Of a stretch of DNA of 47,245 nucleotides, positions 6,621 to 16,420 are shown piece after piece. The notes beneath the pieces are model-generated. The model made no database searches, was not told the origin of the DNA, and worked only from the letters and a program-made list of their open reading frames with translations. Each line of letters starts with the position of its first letter. Position 1 is the first letter of the stretch. The translations under genes were made by a program, and so were the position numbers. Source of the DNA: a virus (lineage: Duplodnaviria > Caudoviricetes); the IMG/VR virus record IMGVR_UViG_3300031965_000051, positions 1 through 47,245 of that record. One strand, written 5' to 3'.

Positions 6621-6635
6621 CACGCACGCTACAGT

Positions 6636-6740
6636 CCCGTAGCCCGTCTTCCCGTAGCCCGTCTTCCCGTAGCCCGGCTTCCCGTAGCCCGGCTTCCCGT
6701 AGCCCGGCTTCCCGTAGCCCGGCTTCCCGCAGCCCGTCTT
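6636..6740. repeat. 15-bp tandem repeat x7 (CCCGTAGCCCGKCTT)
   Basis: Seven contiguous copies read directly, with no spacers. Confidence 0.95.
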
Positions 6741-7927: not shown

Positions 7928-8167
7928 TCATGCTCTCCGGCGTCGTTTGGCCCGTCGCTCGAGGTCGGCGGCGAGCAGATGAAGAAGTTGCCTTGCGGTG
8001 GCCGACGGCCGCCGCCGCCCCTGCTCCCACGAGCGGACGGTGTCGAGCGAGACGCCGACCCGCCGCGCGAACTCCGGCTGCGATTCGCCGAACCGCTCGC
8101 GTAAACTACGGATTGAAACCACGGATCCATCCTCCGTCGTGTAAGGTGCCCGCCGCTTTCGCAGCAA
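7928..8167 (-). CDS. XRE-family HTH regulator (YiaG/HigA-like)
   Basis: IRSLRERFGESQPEFARRVGVSLDTVRSWEQGRRRPS is a canonical HTH_3 pattern. Confidence 0.85.
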   Translation of the reverse strand: MLRKRRAPYTTEDGSVVSIRSLRERFGESQPEFARRVGVSLDTVRSWEQGRRRPSATARQLLHLLAADLERRAKRRRRA

Positions 8168-9262: not shown

Positions 9263-9349
9263 CATCGTACAATGTACGATGGCGGGATCAAGCGAATTCC
9301 GGGGAAAAATCTCGGATTGCCCTAAGTCGTACACGGTACGACACTTAGG
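9263..9349 (-). promoter_or_regulatory. Leftward sigma70-like promoter with two palindromic operators (TCGTAC-N3-GTACGA)
   Basis: Minus strand reads TTGATC-16 nt-TACGAT; palindromes CATCGTACAATGTACGATG (9263-9281) and GTCGTACACGGTACGAC (9326-9342). Confidence 0.7.
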
Positions 9350-9830: not shown

Positions 9831-9991
9831 GGTTGTCGGCTCAGTTGGGGACCGCTCCTACACCGACGCTAAACCGCCCCGCCGCCCGTCGCAAGGGAAA
9901 TCCCCAAAAAACGCGGGTGATCGGGCTACGGGAAGACGGGCTACGGGCGCCTGTAGCCGGTAGCCGGTAGCCCGAAGCCTGTAGCCTGTCG

Positions 9992-10147: not shown

Positions 10148-10189
<42 letters not shown>

Positions 10190-10292
10190 TTGGGTTTAGG
10201 ACGTAAGGTTTCAATTGCCAAAGAGTTGCGGTAAAGTCACCCGTTTTGAATATAGCGGACTACTAATCCGCTATTCTCGACTTCGGCGCGCC

Positions 10293-10397
10293 AAAGGCCG
10301 CCGGGCGTTGTCCGGGAACAAGCGAGCGCGTCGCGCAAGGACCCGGAGAGGCTGCGTTCCACAGTGCCTCAACACCAGCGCCCGGCCGGCTTTTTTT
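10293..10397 (+). ncRNA. Candidate c4/CI-like antisense small RNA (three-way junction ending in a U-tract)
   Basis: Outer stem 10300-10310/10376-10386; arms TCCGGG/CCCGGA and GAGGC/GCCTC; loop TTCCACAGT complementary to 11116-11124; T7 at 10391-10397. Confidence 0.55.
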
Positions 10398-10457
10398 GAA
10401 GCGGCGGTCAGCAAATAGCTTTCAGCGGTCAGCTTTCAGCGGGAAAGGCGTGGGGAG

Positions 10458-10646
10458 ATGGCGAGACGGACGCAGATCGAAGTGCTGGAGGAAATTCGGG
10501 AATTGCTCGCCAACCTCGTCGCGGCGGTCGAGGACATCGGGGAGCGGATCGAAGCGAACGACCCGCGGGAGAAGGCTCGCACAATCGCGACGGCGGAGAA
10601 GCTGGTCGACGAAGTCAAAGAGGGATGGCGAACGCCCAACGAGTGA
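10458..10646 (+). CDS. Small helical hypothetical protein, 62 aa
   Basis: Purine-rich sequence before ATG; amphipathic coiled-coil-like sequence. Confidence 0.5.
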   Translation: MARRTQIEVLEEIRELLANLVAAVEDIGERIEANDPREKARTIATAEKLVDEVKEGWRTPNE

Positions 10647-10651
10647 ACGGA

Positions 10652-10912
10652 TCAAGCCGCGTCGTCGAAACCGGCGGCGCCGGCGATCGCTGCGGCCGAC
10701 TGCTCTTCCTCTTCCGGTCCCAGGTTGGTGACGAATTCGAGAATCGCCAGCAGCTCGTCGGCCGCCTTGTTCACGCGGCGAACGATCGTCCGACCCGAGT
10801 AGGAAGGTGCGGCGATGACCGCCCGAGTCATCTCGGCCGACAACTCCGTCAGCGTCTTCGCGCATTCTTCGATCACCGCGCGACGCGTCGGGCGTGGATC
10901 GGGTGCGTTCAT
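10652..10912 (-). CDS. Small helical hypothetical protein, 86 aa
   Basis: Natural amino-acid composition; converges on the previous ORF with a 5-bp gap. Confidence 0.5.
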   Translation of the reverse strand: MNAPDPRPTRRAVIEECAKTLTELSAEMTRAVIAAPSYSGRTIVRRVNKAADELLAILEFVTNLGPEEEEQSAAAIAGAAGFDDAA

Positions 10913-11070
10913 GCCGCGAATTCTAGCAGGCGGGTCGATCCACCGCTAGTTGACCGCCCCCCGTTTGTGTCCTACACTTCGAGCACGATGACTCGGGACG
11001 CGAGGGATCGCGACGAAACGCCCCTTTTCTCCGGCGATTTCGCACGTCCGAAAATTCGCAAGAATTATCC

Positions 11071-11098
11071 TTGACTCCCCGGCCGGGCGCGGTAGATT
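11071..11098 (+). promoter_or_regulatory. Rightward sigma70-like promoter for the integrase/early operon
   Basis: TTGACT-16 nt-TAGATT with an AT-rich stretch upstream. Confidence 0.6.
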
Positions 11099-11104
11099 CG
11101 TCCC

Positions 11105-11360
11105 CCGTGTTGAAAACTGTGGAATGCTGATCCCTTCGATCCGCCTTCCCCTTTGGCCCGAACTCCTGGGCCCTCGAAGGCCGACCCTCTGGGTACGGCT
11201 TCCACAGTTGCCGAACACCGGCTATTCGGGGACCAGGTTTTTTCCTCCGGTTCCGGTCGGGTTGCTCGCCAAGCGCATTCGCCCTTCGGGGCTCTGTCCC
11301 GCGCAACCCGAGACGCCCTGAGGCGGCAGCGCATGGCCGCCTCAGGGCCGGACCGGAGTT
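11105..11360 (+). ncRNA. Highly structured 5' leader upstream of the integrase
   Basis: AACTGTGGAA/TTCCACAGTT (11115-11124/11200-11209); CCTTCGA/TCGAAGG; C-UUCG-G tetraloop at 11281-11292; perfect 12-bp stem 11316-11327/11336-11347. Confidence 0.5.
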
Positions 11361-11517: not shown

Positions 11518-12570
11518 ATGCAAAACGCCTCACCCCCGATTCTTTCATTCCGGGATTTTCAAGCGCCGCGCCGTCATCAGGCGATGGCGTCGATGACGCT
11601 CTCGGAGTTCTTTTGGCGGGTCTACTATCCCAATTACGAGGCCCGGCTCGGCGGCCAGGTCAAGCATCGGACCGTCGAGGACGTGCGGACGACGCTGCGC
11701 CATTGGAAGTGCCTCACCAACGACCCGCCGCTCTCGGAGATCGACGGCAACGACGAGCTGCTCTTGCGGTTTATGGTGCAGCTTCAGCGGCGGGGCCTGA
11801 AGCCGGTCAGCGTGAAAAAGCACGTCCGCTGGGTCCGGACGATCCTGGCGCTGGCCGGATCGGGGCACCGGCACTACGGGGCGAAACGGATCCTTCAGAG
11901 TCTGCCCCACGTGGTCGAGCCCAAGATCGCGCGGGAACGGCCGCGACGGATCCCCGCCGACCTTTTGGGACGGCTCTGGAAGGCGGCGGCGACGGCAACG
12001 AAGCCCTGTTACGCCGGCTGCCGGCCGAGCGACTTCTGGCGCGGCATGATCCTGCTCGGTGCGAACACGGGCCTGCGCACGGGCAACCTGCGGTTTGTGG
12101 CGCGGGCACGGATCGACCGCGAAGCCGGCACGATCCGGCTGTTGTCGGGCGAGACGAAGGGCGCCGTCGAGCAGCTCCTGAGACTCTGGCCCGAGACGTT
12201 GGCGGCACTGGCGAGGCTGGCGCATCGGCACCCGCTCCTCTTTCACTGGCCCGGCCGGTTCGATTTCGCCGCCGAGGTCTCCGCCGGCACCTTTTACACC
12301 GCCTGGCGGCAGTTACAGCATCGGGCCGGCGTCCCCGTGGGCGAGACCAAGTTCCAGGGGTTTCAGGGGATCCGGCGCCGGGTGCTCTCGGAGGTCCTGC
12401 GCTACGGCGGTCGCGAGGCGGCGCAGCTCTACGGCGGCCACGCCTCGTTCGACACCACGCTGGGCCACTACATCGACGACGCCGACGAGATCCTCGACTC
12501 GGCGTTTCAGGCGCGTCCGAAGCCCGCGTTCGTCACGCGCGATTCGCGGCAGATGTCTCTGTTCGATTGA
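11518..12570 (+). CDS. int: Tyrosine recombinase/integrase
   Basis: ANTGLRTGNL (catalytic R), ETKG (K), FQGIRR (HxxR position), GGHAS...TTLGHYID (H and Y). Start may be 11518 or 11584/11593. Confidence 0.9.
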   Translation: MQNASPPILSFRDFQAPRRHQAMASMTLSEFFWRVYYPNYEARLGGQVKHRTVEDVRTTLRHWKCLTNDPPLSEIDGNDELLLRFMVQLQRRGLKPVSVKKHVRWVRTILALAGSGHRHYGAKRILQSLPHVVEPKIARERPRRIPADLLGRLWKAAATATKPCYAGCRPSDFWRGMILLGANTGLRTGNLRFVARARIDREAGTIRLLSGETKGAVEQLLRLWPETLAALARLAHRHPLLFHWPGRFDFAAEVSAGTFYTAWRQLQHRAGVPVGETKFQGFQGIRRRVLSEVLRYGGREAAQLYGGHASFDTTLGHYIDDADEILDSAFQARPKPAFVTRDSRQMSLFD

Positions 12571-12577
12571 TTCCTTT

Positions 12578-12925
12578 CGCCCCGTCCGATCAGGTCGCGA
12601 TGCGTTGTCCCGGCCGGTCGGGCGGGGTTTTTTCTACGGGCTACGGGAAGACGGGCTACGGGCTACAGGCAGACGGGCTACGGGCAGACGGGCTACAGGT
12701 TTCGGGCGCCTGTCTTCCTGTAGCCTGTCTTCCCGTAGCCTGTTTCTCCGCGGGGCGGTTGGCGGGCGTTGTTTTCATCGATGGGACCGCACGGAAAGCC
12801 CCCGCGCACTTGTCGTGCGCGGTTGGACTCGCGCCCGCGCCGCCCCGCGTTTTTTCCCCTGATGCTATTTCTCCGGCCCGTCGTCGGTCGTTGCGGCACC
12901 CCCGGGCGATCGGCGGCGGGTTTTT
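12578..12925 (+). terminator. Three tandem terminator-like stems between int and the early genes
   Basis: GC-rich stems with T-tracts ending near 12633, 12855 (CGCGGGGCGG/CCGCCCCGCG) and 12925. Confidence 0.55.
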
Positions 12926-13033
12926 CAACGGGCTACGGGCAGGCAGGCTACGGGAAGCCGGGAAATCAGGCTACTGGCGCCCGCAGCCTGTCTTCCTGTT
13001 TTCCCGAAGTCTTTCGAATGAAAGGAGTCGGTG

Positions 13034-13384
13034 ATGGCACGGGCCGAGCTGAAGCTGGAGACGCTGAAGGACCTGAACCTCGGGGCCGTCGGGCTCGTCT
13101 GGGACCAGGAGCTGGCGGTCATCATGCACGACCTGCACGATCGGCCGGGCGTGCCGAAGGCCCGCGAGCTGCACCTCATCCTGCGCGTAGAGCCGATCAG
13201 CGAGCACGGCGGGTGCGAATACGTCCGTGGCGACGTCGCGATTTTCTCGAGGCTGCCCAAACGCAAGACCCGCGAGCTGAACTTCGCGACCGACGTGCAG
13301 GGGAGGCTCATTTTCAACTCCGAGTCGCCGGACTCGGTCGATCAGAACACGCTGTTCGGAAAGGAAACTGCAAGCGATGACTGA
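13034..13384 (+). CDS. Conserved phage early protein (YfdP-like position in a gene pair)
   Basis: AAAGGAG SD; DRPGVPKARELHLILRVEP; overlaps the next gene; family call tentative. Confidence 0.6.
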   Translation: MARAELKLETLKDLNLGAVGLVWDQELAVIMHDLHDRPGVPKARELHLILRVEPISEHGGCEYVRGDVAIFSRLPKRKTRELNFATDVQGRLIFNSESPDSVDQNTLFGKETASDD

Positions 13385-14150
13385 AATCACCTCGGCCTTG
13401 GAATTCCTTCGATCGCAGGCGGTCGCCGCCAAGTCGCCGTTCTTCGCCGCCACCGATCAGGTGCCCAACGCCGTTTGGCTGTGTCGCGACGGCATCTCCG
13501 AACGGATCGAACGCGATCCGCCGCCGCGCGGGCACCGCGTCGACACGCTGGAGAGCCTCGTCGATTCGGTCAAACATTATCACGATCCTGGTGCGACAAG
13601 CCTGTGGTGCTCGTTTGCGGAGATCGTCGCGGTCCTCGACGACGGCGAATACCGCGCGAGCCGGATTACGTTCGACCTGAAACCGAGCGAAGTGCTCGGG
13701 GAGATTGAGAAGCACGCCGGTGTCTCGATGGATCACTCGTCCTTACTGCGGCTGCTGCGTTTTTCGCTGGCCGGGTGCTACGAGGACTATCCGGACTTGC
13801 TGCCGGCCCTTCGGCAGGTGAAGGTCAGCCGGAGCCAATCGTCCGATTCGCGACTCGAGCACGGCGACGAGCAGTTGGGTCGCGAGATCGCCGCCAAGAT
13901 CACGTGCGCTCAGGCGCTGCCCGACGCCGTCATCCTCGAGGTGCCGATCTTCGCGAATGGGGCGCTGCTGGACAGCACGCAATCGATCGAGTGCGGCATC
14001 GACATCGACCCGTTCGCCGGCACGTTCCGATTGCTGCCCGCACCGGACGCGATCGAACAGGCGAAACAGGCGGCCGTGCGAGCGATCTTCGACGTGCTTT
14101 CGCGCGAGCTGGCGGACTTGAAAGTGCCGATCTTCCTCGGCAAGCCGTGA
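13377..14150 (+). CDS. Conserved phage early protein (DUF2303/YfdQ-like)
   Basis: H.VDTLESLVD...LPDAVILEVPIF pattern; coupled to the upstream small gene. Confidence 0.55.
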   Translation: MTEITSALEFLRSQAVAAKSPFFAATDQVPNAVWLCRDGISERIERDPPPRGHRVDTLESLVDSVKHYHDPGATSLWCSFAEIVAVLDDGEYRASRITFDLKPSEVLGEIEKHAGVSMDHSSLLRLLRFSLAGCYEDYPDLLPALRQVKVSRSQSSDSRLEHGDEQLGREIAAKITCAQALPDAVILEVPIFANGALLDSTQSIECGIDIDPFAGTFRLLPAPDAIEQAKQAAVRAIFDVLSRELADLKVPIFLGKP

Positions 14151-14165
14151 GAGGAGGGTTGAACG

Positions 14166-14396
14166 TTGAAAGCCGGAAACGAAGGGGCGGCGCTGCTGGC
14201 GTTTGTCACCAAGACGACGCACCTTGAGATCGTTTGCGAACGCTGTGGAAGGATCAACGTGGAGTTGCCGCGTTTCGTCTCCCGGCTGCTGTACGCCAGA
14301 AAGATGGCCCGCCTCGGTTGGCGGGTGATCGACGGAAAGCCGGTCTGCCCCGCGTGCGCTCACGCCGCCGAGCTGGCCGCCGGGAAGCGGACGTGA
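14166..14396 (+). CDS. Small Zn-finger protein
   Basis: CERCG...GWRVIDGKPVCPAC; paralogous motif in 19137-19352. Confidence 0.65.
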   Translation: MKAGNEGAALLAFVTKTTHLEIVCERCGRINVELPRFVSRLLYARKMARLGWRVIDGKPVCPACAHAAELAAGKRT

Positions 14397-15307: not shown

Positions 15308-16147
15308 ATGGACCGAGCCGAGATTTGCGTGGAGCTTCAGGCGCTCGCCAGGGAGCGGGCCGACTACCTGGGCTTTCGGATCAAGAACGAGAACGGGCTG
15401 CGAGCCAAGGTCGCCAGCACATTAGGCTACGAGACGGACCTCGACGAGACCGCGCGGCGCCGCTTGTTTGATGAGGCCGACAAGTTGATCGCGCAGATCA
15501 GCAAGGGGTCGGTCGATGGCCCGGTTGCGCCGCTGGTCCGCGTGGTGCTGCCGTGTATTGAAAGTTTTGATCGCATGGCGAAGAACCTCGAAAAAGAGAC
15601 GCGCCGCCTGGCGGAGCGCCTGCCCGTGGCCGATTGGGTCGAAGACGAGGAGCAACGCGGGTTTGGCCCTTTGTTGCTGGGGCAGCTCATCGGCGAGACC
15701 GGAGATTTGGCGAACTATCCGTCACCGGGGAAGGTGTGGAAGCGGATGGGATGCGCCCCGTTCGAGAAGGACGGGAAAAACCTGATGCCATCGACGTGGC
15801 GGTCCGGGCGCGAAGGGAAGCTCGACAGCGCCGACTGGCAGGCGATCGGCTACTCGCCGCGACGGCGGAGCATCGCGTATCTGATCGGAGATTGCCTTCA
15901 AAAAGGGAACAAGGGCGGTCCGTATCGGCGGCGCTTCGACGAGGCGAAGGCGGCAATCGCCGTCGAACATCCGGATTACAAGCCGATGCGTTGCCACCTG
16001 CACGGGATGCTGCTGGCGAGCAAGCTGCTGATGAGAAACCTTTGGGACGAATGGACCCGACCGAGCCGCGAGGGGACCCCTGAATCCGATATGGTGCGTG
16101 CGGCCGTCGGTTCCATCTCGTCAGAAACGCTTACTGCTACGCTTTAA
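15308..16147 (+). CDS. Nop/IS110 C-terminal-domain RNA-binding protein lacking RuvC/HNH (TasA-like)
   Basis: AGGAGG SD; coiled coil, then RGFGPLLLGQLIGETGDLANYPSPGKVWKRMGCAP (IS110 Transposase_20/Nop-like), YRRRFDEAK, and SKLLMRNLWDEW; no DEDD N-terminus; adjacent to the guide array. Confidence 0.85.
   Translation: MDRAEICVELQALARERADYLGFRIKNENGLRAKVASTLGYETDLDETARRRLFDEADKLIAQISKGSVDGPVAPLVRVVLPCIESFDRMAKNLEKETRRLAERLPVADWVEDEEQRGFGPLLLGQLIGETGDLANYPSPGKVWKRMGCAPFEKDGKNLMPSTWRSGREGKLDSADWQAIGYSPRRRSIAYLIGDCLQKGNKGGPYRRRFDEAKAAIAVEHPDYKPMRCHLHGMLLASKLLMRNLWDEWTRPSREGTPESDMVRAAVGSISSETLTATL
16051..16116 (+). ncRNA. Seventh TIGR-like unit embedded in the 3' end of the tas CDS
   Basis: GCGA-ggggacccc-TGAATCCGA-tatggtgcg-TGC (16068-16101), closed by ATGGACCCGAC/GTCGGTTCCAT. 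Confidence 0.85.
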
Positions 16148-16420
16148 CCCCCGACCCCCGACCCCCGACCCCCAGGTGAATCATGCTCCTCATCGCCCTG
16201 TTCCTAGCGTTCGTGAGCTACTTCGCCGGCGCTCTCGTCGGCTTTCACCTCGGCGTCCGCTGGGGCCGGCGGCCGGTCGTCCGCGAGTCGTCGCTGGTCG
16301 GACCGAGGGAAGGCGGGCTACAGGAAGACAGGCGCCTGAAGCCCGTAGCCCGTAGCCTGTAGCCCGAAGCCAGTAGCCTGAAGCCGGAATCATTGCGAAA
16401 ACCACGCGGAGGGAAAACCG

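Follow-up and report, generated by a model that had tools for sequence, protein, structure and literature searches.

The DNA analysed here (the window) is a stretch of 47,245 nucleotides (nt) covering positions 1 to 47,245 of IMG/VR virus record IMGVR_UViG_3300031965_000051, a circular tailed phage with a terminal repeat of 127 nt. The segment at 10293-10397 of this phage probably specifies a small RNA which acts in trans to silence the integrase and early genes, by pairing with the leader of their transcript and bringing about its termination. The pairing between the two RNAs, taken on its own, is very likely. The complementarity involves three sites and changes in concert in a relative, the phage attachment site (attP) lies in tRNA-Asp sequence, the integrase is the first gene after the leader, and the layout recurs in related elements. 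As far as can be judged from the sequence, the RNA would be transcribed, would terminate the early transcript and would take part in lysogeny and immunity, as proposed in an earlier note on this DNA.

The candidate RNA and its recognition blocks are located as follows:

10293..10397, + strand: candidate small RNA, a three-way junction with a long closing stem and a terminal T7 run (fold z-score: -4.21)
10354..10365, + strand: block a′, the specificity loop of helix P3, GCGTTCCACAGT, complementary to 11116-11127
10369..10375, + strand: block b′, TCAACAC, in the 3′ strand of helix P3 and the junction, complementary to 11107-11113

The three-way junction described in the earlier note was recovered by folding, with a free energy of -57 kcal/mol (z-score: -4.21) that was equalled by 0/200 shuffled sequences. 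It consists of the 18-bp stem P1 (10293-10310/10376-10394), helix P2 (10311-10316/10342-10347) and helix P3 (10348-10352/10366-10370), and ends in the T run at 10391-10397. TCAACAC had been put forward as the second block. Its complementarity to the leader holds, but its first two letters (TC) are paired in helix P3, leaving only AACAC unpaired. No match was found to any Rfam family at the gathering threshold in the window, nor at an e-value of up to 10 at 10293-10397 or the leader core. A scan with the C4 antisense RNA model (RF01695), the check proposed with the earlier note, likewise returned no match at an e-value of up to 10.

The leader with which this RNA would pair comprises the following features:

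10950..10978, + strand: promoter-like site P1, TTGACC-17-TACACT, found by promoter scan, with hexamers and spacing kept in the relative X2
11071..11098, + strand: promoter-like site P2, TTGACT-16-TAGATT, immediately ahead of the target, found by promoter scan and chosen by the rule used on the relatives
11107..11127, + strand: target, made up of block b (11107-11113) and block a (11116-11127), where the leader is predicted to start, GTGTTGA-AA-ACTGTGGAA-TGC
11143..11151, + strand: 5′ strand of the predicted terminator-closing helix, pairing with 11228-11238 and unchanged in the relatives X2 and X3
11200..11218, + strand: cis copy of a′ and b′, the predicted anti-terminator partner, TTCCACAGTT...AACAC, in the same sense as the RNA
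11228..11243, + strand: 3′ strand of the closing helix and a T6 run (11238-11243), forming the predicted conditional terminator

All of the motifs on which the earlier note relied, including the TTGACT/TAGATT promoter just before the target, are found at their coordinates. On the + strand TTCCACAGT occurs solely at 10357 and 11200, and ACTGTGGAA solely at 11116, while the cis copy region shares 78% identity over 23 nt with 10357-10379. The complementarity includes a U-G pair (11125/10356) in the window. A match in two blocks arose in 0/20,000 shuffles and was unique to the element in a scan of the + strand (105-nt windows, step of 20), while a single block of at least 9 nt arose in 325/20,000 (1.6%). 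The single 9-nt block is thus weak evidence, whereas the two-block match is unlikely to be due to chance.

Close relatives of this region were recovered from runs X2 to X5, with X3 and X4 derived from other studies, and changes in the cores were read by hand from difference tables. Contig 1 of X2 (605 nt) covers 10154-10396 and then 10963-11284, joining 10396 to 10963 and skipping two small open reading frames (ORFs); X5 covers the recognition sites incompletely. In X2 the target core is altered from ACTGTGGA to ACGTGAGA, while the core in both the small-RNA loop and the cis copy changes to TCTCACGT, which still pairs with ACGTGAGA. One letter of the 8-nt core is lost and one gained at each site, the U-G pair at 11125/10356 becomes G-C, and blocks b and b′ are unchanged. 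Four of the six X2 changes within 10293-10397 fall in the recognition loop and the other two at unpaired positions. The target and cis changes recur in X3, and the cis changes in X4, which makes assembly errors unlikely. Changes affect 11 of the 62 positions in the recognition segments versus 10 of the 222 in the remainder of the two RNAs (p = 0.0014), and in the contigs covering 11155-11269 no change is observed outside the cis copy. Across the X2 joint promoter P1 retains both hexamers and the 17-nt spacing, though the first seven spacer letters differ. X2 and X3 lack the ATG at 11124, and no leader peptide is therefore conserved; the 65-amino acid (aa) ORF starting there was rejected as an equivalent of icd or kil.

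It might be argued that the three 9-mers are binding sites for a protein on the DNA, such as an operator or boxes for DnaA (TTCCACA), or merely chance repeats. The 9-mer does agree with the DnaA box at about seven of nine positions, and a single 9-nt block is found in 1.6% of shuffles. The CCACA core is, however, lost in X2 at all three sites with the complementarity kept and U-G replaced by G-C, and DnaA boxes were rejected. Furthermore, the 9-mer copies lie in unpaired parts of a stable fold, the letters of each related element differ but are matched to its own leader, and the two-block match was seen in none of the 20,000 shuffles, rendering this explanation highly improbable. The earlier note had named conservation or covariation of the complementarity in relatives as the point on which its proposal would stand or fall; what was found is a compensatory change at three sites in X2 and cognate-specific complementarity across the related elements described below.

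Pairing between RNA and leader would be expected to alter the fold of the latter. In the free leader (transcript from 11105), block a at 11116-11127 pairs with the cis copy at 11200-11209 with a probability of 1.0, in line with the alternative cis pairing suggested earlier, while 11228-11237 is mostly open (pairing probability no higher than 0.38). Holding block a unpaired lets 11143-11151 pair with 11228-11238 at 0.9-1.0, except for a 2-nt bulge, immediately before the T6 run; blocking block b alone does not produce this flip. As a blocked target is predicted to close the stem before T6, the leader is likely to be an attenuator, which by this modelling would be read through when free and would stop transcription when bound by the RNA. 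The structured leader runs on after T6 (11244-11360) and includes a 13-bp hairpin at 11315-11348; changes in X2 to X5 within this part fall in loops or keep the pairing as G-U (11306).

Related elements were sought with a profile of eight related integrases, which matched 75 of 401 genomes in the class of genome G008 and 53 of 401 in the order of genome G001. Of 64 upstream regions, 33 contained an intact tRNA gene on the same strand (by ARAGORN or Rfam); five of these were dropped, the promoter call not being downstream of the tRNA, leaving 28 which with the window make 29 loci, while G484, with a cut tRNA, was read separately. A recurrent layout is observed, comprising a tRNA, a folded T-ended element, optional ORFs, a TTGAC promoter, a long leader and the integrase. 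The 3′ half of the tRNA is repeated 34-47 kb downstream in 5/5 elements checked, identifying the intact tRNA as attL, and a gpA terminase is encoded 13-23 kb behind the integrase in 4/5 genomes searched. No clear match to the virion proteins of the window was found in the elements of G075a, G512 and G524, and prophage status is therefore supported for only some of the elements. Where the repressor peptidase domain S24 was hit in host genomes (10 of them), the match fell on another contig or outside the element.

The letters at the 5′ end of the leader, in the upstream RNA and in the cis copy change together within three sets of elements, G349/G600/G100/G075b, G075a/c/d and G320/G512/G544/G576/G228/G484. 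Genome G075 carries four elements at four tRNAs (L234, L241, L243 and L245), each with a distinct loop matched to its own leader. In a subgroup of 14 related RNA sequences, 13 of the 18 consensus pairs show double-sided change.

When the target was compared with the region formed by the tRNA and the next 300 nt, the locus's own region ranked first in 8/15 loci under the first promoter rule (p = 1e-5) and in 9/15 under a revised rule (p = 1e-5). The first rule had mis-picked 2/14 promoters, and both rule and score were revised after matches had been seen by eye, so that this first set does not represent a blind test. The word common to small RNA, cis copy and target complement averaged 7.2 nt, versus 5.2-5.6 nt when permuted, in the first 15 loci, and 6.2 versus 5.1-5.4 nt in the next nine (p = 2e-4 to 0.011). 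Over the whole tRNA-to-promoter interval, which was chosen after distant matches had been seen, and with the rule-picked promoter, the own interval was strictly first in 14/29 loci (permutation p = 1e-5) and in 5/14 of those fetched later (p = 2e-5). The antisense score was 11.5 compared to 8.7 for the same-sense control (p = 7e-5), and 15/29 loci reached p ≤ 0.05 against shuffled targets.

The following observations weigh against a silencing RNA of the kind proposed. The loci are related and four derive from G075, and the p values therefore overstate their independence. The own interval is not first in 15/29 loci, the tRNA-plus-300-nt comparison is weak in the next nine loci (1/9 first, p = 0.025) and fails in the last five (0/5, p = 0.52), and local alignment of the target with the cis region alone places the own region first in only 1/15 (p = 0.19, not significant). 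In G443 and in four of those last five loci (G934a, G1169, G919 and G881), the matching segment is found at a distance of 330-1400 nt from the tRNA. The loop of G644 is non-matching, the hit in G228 depends on a mis-picked promoter, and no convincing fit was found in G644, G362b, G538, G123, G409 and G960. The subgroup model (R1) recovers only its own members in 141 genomes, with one weak link to G600 (28 bits), and finds nothing at the window RNA or in the 20 regions of the last set; the likeness of the window RNA to those of its relatives is therefore established at the level of architecture. In the close relatives, the X2-type change represents one lineage, with the loop covered by X2 alone (depth: 5.5), X2 loses the pairing at 11124 and 11127, and the -10 hexamer of P2 changes from TAGATT to TAGAAC in X2 and X3, losing its last T. 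The closing helix before T6 caps a multibranch loop, includes a 2-nt bulge and was missed by a consensus terminator scan; it is therefore not a canonical terminator, and the end of the small RNA itself likewise caps a multibranch fold. A transcript from P1 closes a stem before T6 in both states, and the fold switch is seen in only 5/18 leaders folded (window, G075c, G075a, G008 and G349); in most others the closed form is already dominant with the cis copy in a loop, and in three the T run was probably picked too early. Finally, a terminator-like hairpin separates tRNA and RNA in G349 and G576, and an XRE protein is encoded elsewhere in the phage genome.

Some of these observations could be accommodated if the RNA acted by another route, through a Rho-dependent stop, processing or integrase translation, or if the 3′ domain of the leader were cut out as a CI-like RNA, with the upstream copy as a back-up. 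The non-canonical terminator, the lack of an equilibrium switch in 13/18 leaders, in which the cis copy often occupies a hairpin loop, and the resemblance of the cis domain to the small RNA all favour such a route. PMC4825925 furthermore describes P4 CI as being processed from a transcript under its own control. No leader ORF is, however, conserved, the integrase start lies about 400 nt from the target, and no second target of the seqC or a2b2 type occurs downstream in the window, with single stray 6-mers in 3/16 relatives. The absence of a switch is itself tempered by the equilibrium folding used, in which loop-loop contacts fall outside the model. We consider it unlikely that the RNA acts in this way rather than by intrinsic termination at the T6 run.

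A further alternative is that the pairing is real but secondary, with a protein serving as the main repressor and the RNA tuning only the output of the integrase and early genes. The features on which it bears are:

7928..8167, - strand: XRE helix-turn-helix (HTH) protein, 79 aa (HTH_31, e-value: 5.2e-09; HTH_3, e-value: 3.5e-07)
10458..10646, + strand: 62-aa ORF of no known family (Pfam: nothing above the cut-off), absent from the X2 contig
10652..10912, - strand: 86-aa ORF at the position of a lambda-type repressor, lacking an HTH (0 Pfam families at an e-value of up to 1), absent from the X2 contig

The XRE protein matches its HTH families above the cut-off and is the obvious candidate for this role, for which phage P1 offers a precedent, C1 being the major repressor and c4 repressing Ant synthesis according to PMC8546580. 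A short imperfect dyad is also present just upstream of P2 (~11053-11067). The XRE gene is, however, located about 2 kb to the left of attP, on its other side from the switch, and in the prophage would come to occupy its far end. The sole strong repeated dyad near it, TCGTAC-N3-GTACGA, occurs in two exact copies (9265-9279 and 9327-9341), both upstream of the operon to which the XRE gene belongs, which runs leftward from 9191 to 7079. These copies are likely to be operators, and no copy was found near P1 or P2 with up to three mismatches. Searching with this one XRE protein by tblastn, and with no wider search for XRE proteins, recovered none in five related elements, and X2 lacks the ORF at the position of the lambda repressor. 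The latter, 86-aa ORF was rejected as a repressor, there being no HTH match and no copy in the X2 contig; on sequence grounds both it and the 62-aa ORF appear to be dispensable inserts. The Peptidase_S24 domain (PF00717) was absent at an e-value of up to 1 from all six frames of the phage, in a search whose control found it in 12/14 genomes. The earlier note's statement that no CI-type repressor with a peptidase domain is present therefore stands, alongside the XRE HTH ORF, and no protein combining HTH and Peptidase_S24 domains was found at the early promoters, as would be expected of a lambda CI. A principal role for a protein repressor thus has a small probability. The suggestion that lysogeny may be controlled by RNA gains support from the covariation, the presence of a trans RNA as well as a cis copy, the predicted termination and the absence of S24.

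Pairs of RNA copies provide the best hint of a function in immunity. Two tandem copies with different loops are present in G720, G524, G484 and G100. G720 and G524 share a near-identical array but have different leaders, with copy 2 fitting the leader of G720 and copy 1 that of G524 (7-nt cores and the second block, read by eye; these fits fail the automatic score). The non-self loop in such arrays makes most sense as acting in trans on another phage.

The phage itself is temperate, and the genes and sites around the candidate RNA are as follows:

10148..10189, + strand: attP core, corresponding to tRNA-Asp(GTC) from its anticodon loop onwards (3′ half), with an exact 42-nt match in bacterial genomes
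10252..10274, strand not assigned: dyad with 8-bp arms and a 7-nt spacer (GCGGA-N7-TCCGC), similar to the att core in the anticodon arm and recurring after the tRNA in relatives
11518..12570, + strand: tyrosine integrase, 350 aa, the first gene after the leader (PF00589, residues 175-323, e-value: 7.9e-07; PHROG 1)

Exact copies of the 42-nt core were found at 120 loci among the matches listed from bacterial genomes, the majority of them titled Planctomycetota. The 5′ half of the tRNA precedes the core in most of these loci and is absent before it in the window. The occurrence of the core in bacterial, mostly planctomycete, tRNA-Asp genes identifies 10148-10189 as attP and suggests a planctomycete as the likely host. 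No repressor ORF spans attP, a non-coding site located 104 nt ahead of the candidate RNA. The motif GGA-N7-TCC occurs within 350 nt after the tRNA in 14/25 related loci as well as in the window, against a background of 0.08 per 350 nt, and all three X2 changes in the dyad at 10252-10274 are confined to its spacer; the dyad is likely to be a second core-type site for the integrase, judging by these sequence features. The same motif is found in the anticodon arm of 20/25 target tRNAs upstream of integrases (L232-L275; Asp, Phe, Glu, Met, Arg and others), and this integrase group thus seems to pick tRNAs by the dyad.

The integrase shows a weak SAM_5 match (residues 37-113), and no N-terminal arm-binding domain is visible in it by domain search and alignment. 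It ends in QMSLF (12553-12567), which resembles a beta-clamp binding motif and is lacking in a relative (P0003) with 71% identity. Protein searches recovered one close integrase (71% identity), on a 1.2-kb contig without context, and no relative of the product of 13377-14150. Genes following the integrase on the same strand include those for replication-initiator-like and HerA-like proteins, and other genes on the record encode a gpA terminase, portal, ClpP and capsid. An IS110-like transposase homologue is located within the early operon (15308-16147; PHROG 4285; e-value: 1.9e-07), and a 76-aa ORF at 14166-14396 contains zinc-ribbon-like motifs and weakly matches PHROG 6417, a family of translational regulators. 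Short repeats of the type GGCTACGGG, in both orientations, are clustered at 9921-9990, 12636-12751, 12928-12999, ~6630-6740 and ~16270-16400; their high depth in runs X2 to X5 suggests that they form a dispersed family, belonging to the host or shared by many elements.

An exact-motif scan of viral contigs gave 70 loci, none with the architecture and three with a stray complement, and no usable relative was obtained from integrase and HerA-like searches of viral contigs, a metagenome scan or a phage collection, the metagenome match being a record identical to the window. Three viral contigs share the same att core. Rfam returned only tRNA hits in 16 regions of the relatives at the gathering threshold and only tRNA-overlapping hits in eight more (e-value ≤ 0.05). 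The varied inserts between RNA and promoter, such as an ORF for a small hydrophobic membrane protein in G008 (L197, reverse strand, ~613-966), mark this slot as a hotspot for cargo. RNA-like elements right after the tRNA were also seen in L263 (647-763; G401) and L260 (G244), where the integrase is not preceded by a long leader that matches, while L200, L201 and L209 (G008 C113 and G616) carry tandem pairs of related integrase-like genes with long C-terminal extensions and no upstream tRNA.

No promoter-like site was called before the RNA in the phage circle, the best score there being 8.3, at the 90th percentile of the background, versus 11.15 for P2. After integration a host tRNA gene would lie 104 nt upstream of the RNA, with no terminator called between them. 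The RNA starts 11-50 nt behind the tRNA in 11/20 relatives scored, and in 19/19 the best promoter-like score before it is below that of the leader promoter, being nearly equal in G228 and G320. Two findings argue against read-through from the tRNA, namely the hairpins of G349 and G576 and the distant RNAs of five loci, 330-1400 nt away. Production of the RNA by read-through from the host tRNA promoter is about evenly balanced for the window phage, and less probable as a rule.

The following sequence of events is therefore offered as a model. Upon infection little RNA would be present, and the leader would be read through to produce the integrase and early proteins. Accumulated RNA would bind the first ~25 bases of the nascent leader and free the cis copy, allowing the stem to close before T6 and ending the early transcript, which would silence the prophage and confer immunity to phages sharing those letters. 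Most tentative is the source of the RNA, which in this model would come chiefly from the prophage, through transcription running on from the host tRNA promoter 104 nt upstream. In this integration-gated version, an incoming circle without a promoter for the repressor RNA would make integrase first, integration into the tRNA gene would place the RNA under the host tRNA promoter and so terminate the early transcript, and excision would take this promoter away again. That an RNA-only, integration-gated lysis-lysogeny switch of this type is widespread in Planctomycetota prophages is a speculative extension, which some relatives fit poorly and which we regard as doubtful. If true, the immunity type would be encoded in ~8-20 bases, and stacked RNA copies with different loops would block rival phages. 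The specificity code could then be read from the sequence to predict which prophage blocks which phage, natural orthogonal RNA-leader pairs would become available, and the system would allow a direct test of whether integration itself switches on an RNA repressor via a host tRNA promoter.

RNA-based phage immunity is known from a few enterobacterial phages, and no report of RNA-based prophage control in Planctomycetota was found, in a literature lacking most subscription journals. In P4 the RNA is the immunity factor and there is no CI protein, while c4 is released from its precursor by RNase P and controls Ant by blocking a ribosome-binding site. In plasmids pT181 and pIP501, antisense RNA binding flips a leader anti-terminator into a terminator; these RNAs are encoded in cis, on the opposite strand, and are fully complementary, whereas the window RNA lies on the same strand, 700 nt away, and uses two short blocks. 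In the lysogen, P4 CI pairs with the 5′ leader of an early operon, whose transcript then ends prematurely (PMC4825925); folding predicts a like logic for the window RNA. Unlike P4 CI, the latter is a free-standing unit with its own T7 run, 553 nt upstream of P1, with only a short same-sense copy inside the leader. P4 CI furthermore has two targets (seqA and seqC), whereas target-sense 6-mers here are found at the 5′ site only, and the window differs in its use of the cis copy as a competitor, the lack of a conserved kil-like ORF, the integrase as first gene and the absence of an Rfam match.

The c4 RNA of P1/P7 is described in PMC5320573 as a three-helix RNA with short blocks a′ and b′, in which few a′ changes switch specificity. 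The window RNA similarly has three helices and two short target-complementary blocks, with a′ varying along with the target and b′ unchanged in X2, and loops that track their own leaders in the relatives. The c4 target, in contrast, covers the ribosome-binding site of icd before ant, while that in the window lies about 400 nt before the integrase with no antirepressor directly after it. PMC2864571 records c4 for Proteobacteria and phages, and its table gives no Rfam accession for the c4-a1b1 motif. The c4/CI-like label applied earlier is thus apt for the predicted CI-like termination logic and the a′/b′ design but not for membership, in the absence of an Rfam C4 match. From the modelled folds, the candidate RNA likely works like P4 CI without being a member of its family. 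It apparently belongs to an undescribed family of RNA switches outside Rfam, a variant of RNA-based phage immunity.

A compact switch around attP is also known from the mycobacteriophages BPs, Brujita and Charlie, which lack xis, cII and cIII and in which the integrase alone recombines (PMC3694055), the Brujita integrase being of a simple arm-less type according to PMC8138268. The window resembles these phages, as far as those sources describe them, in the compact switch at attP and in an integrase with no visible arm-binding domain. In BPs and Brujita attP lies inside the protein repressor gene, an arrangement for which no ORF spanning attP was found here, and integration removes a degradation tag from the repressor. 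In the window phage the putative repressor is an RNA, to which integration would instead supply a promoter.

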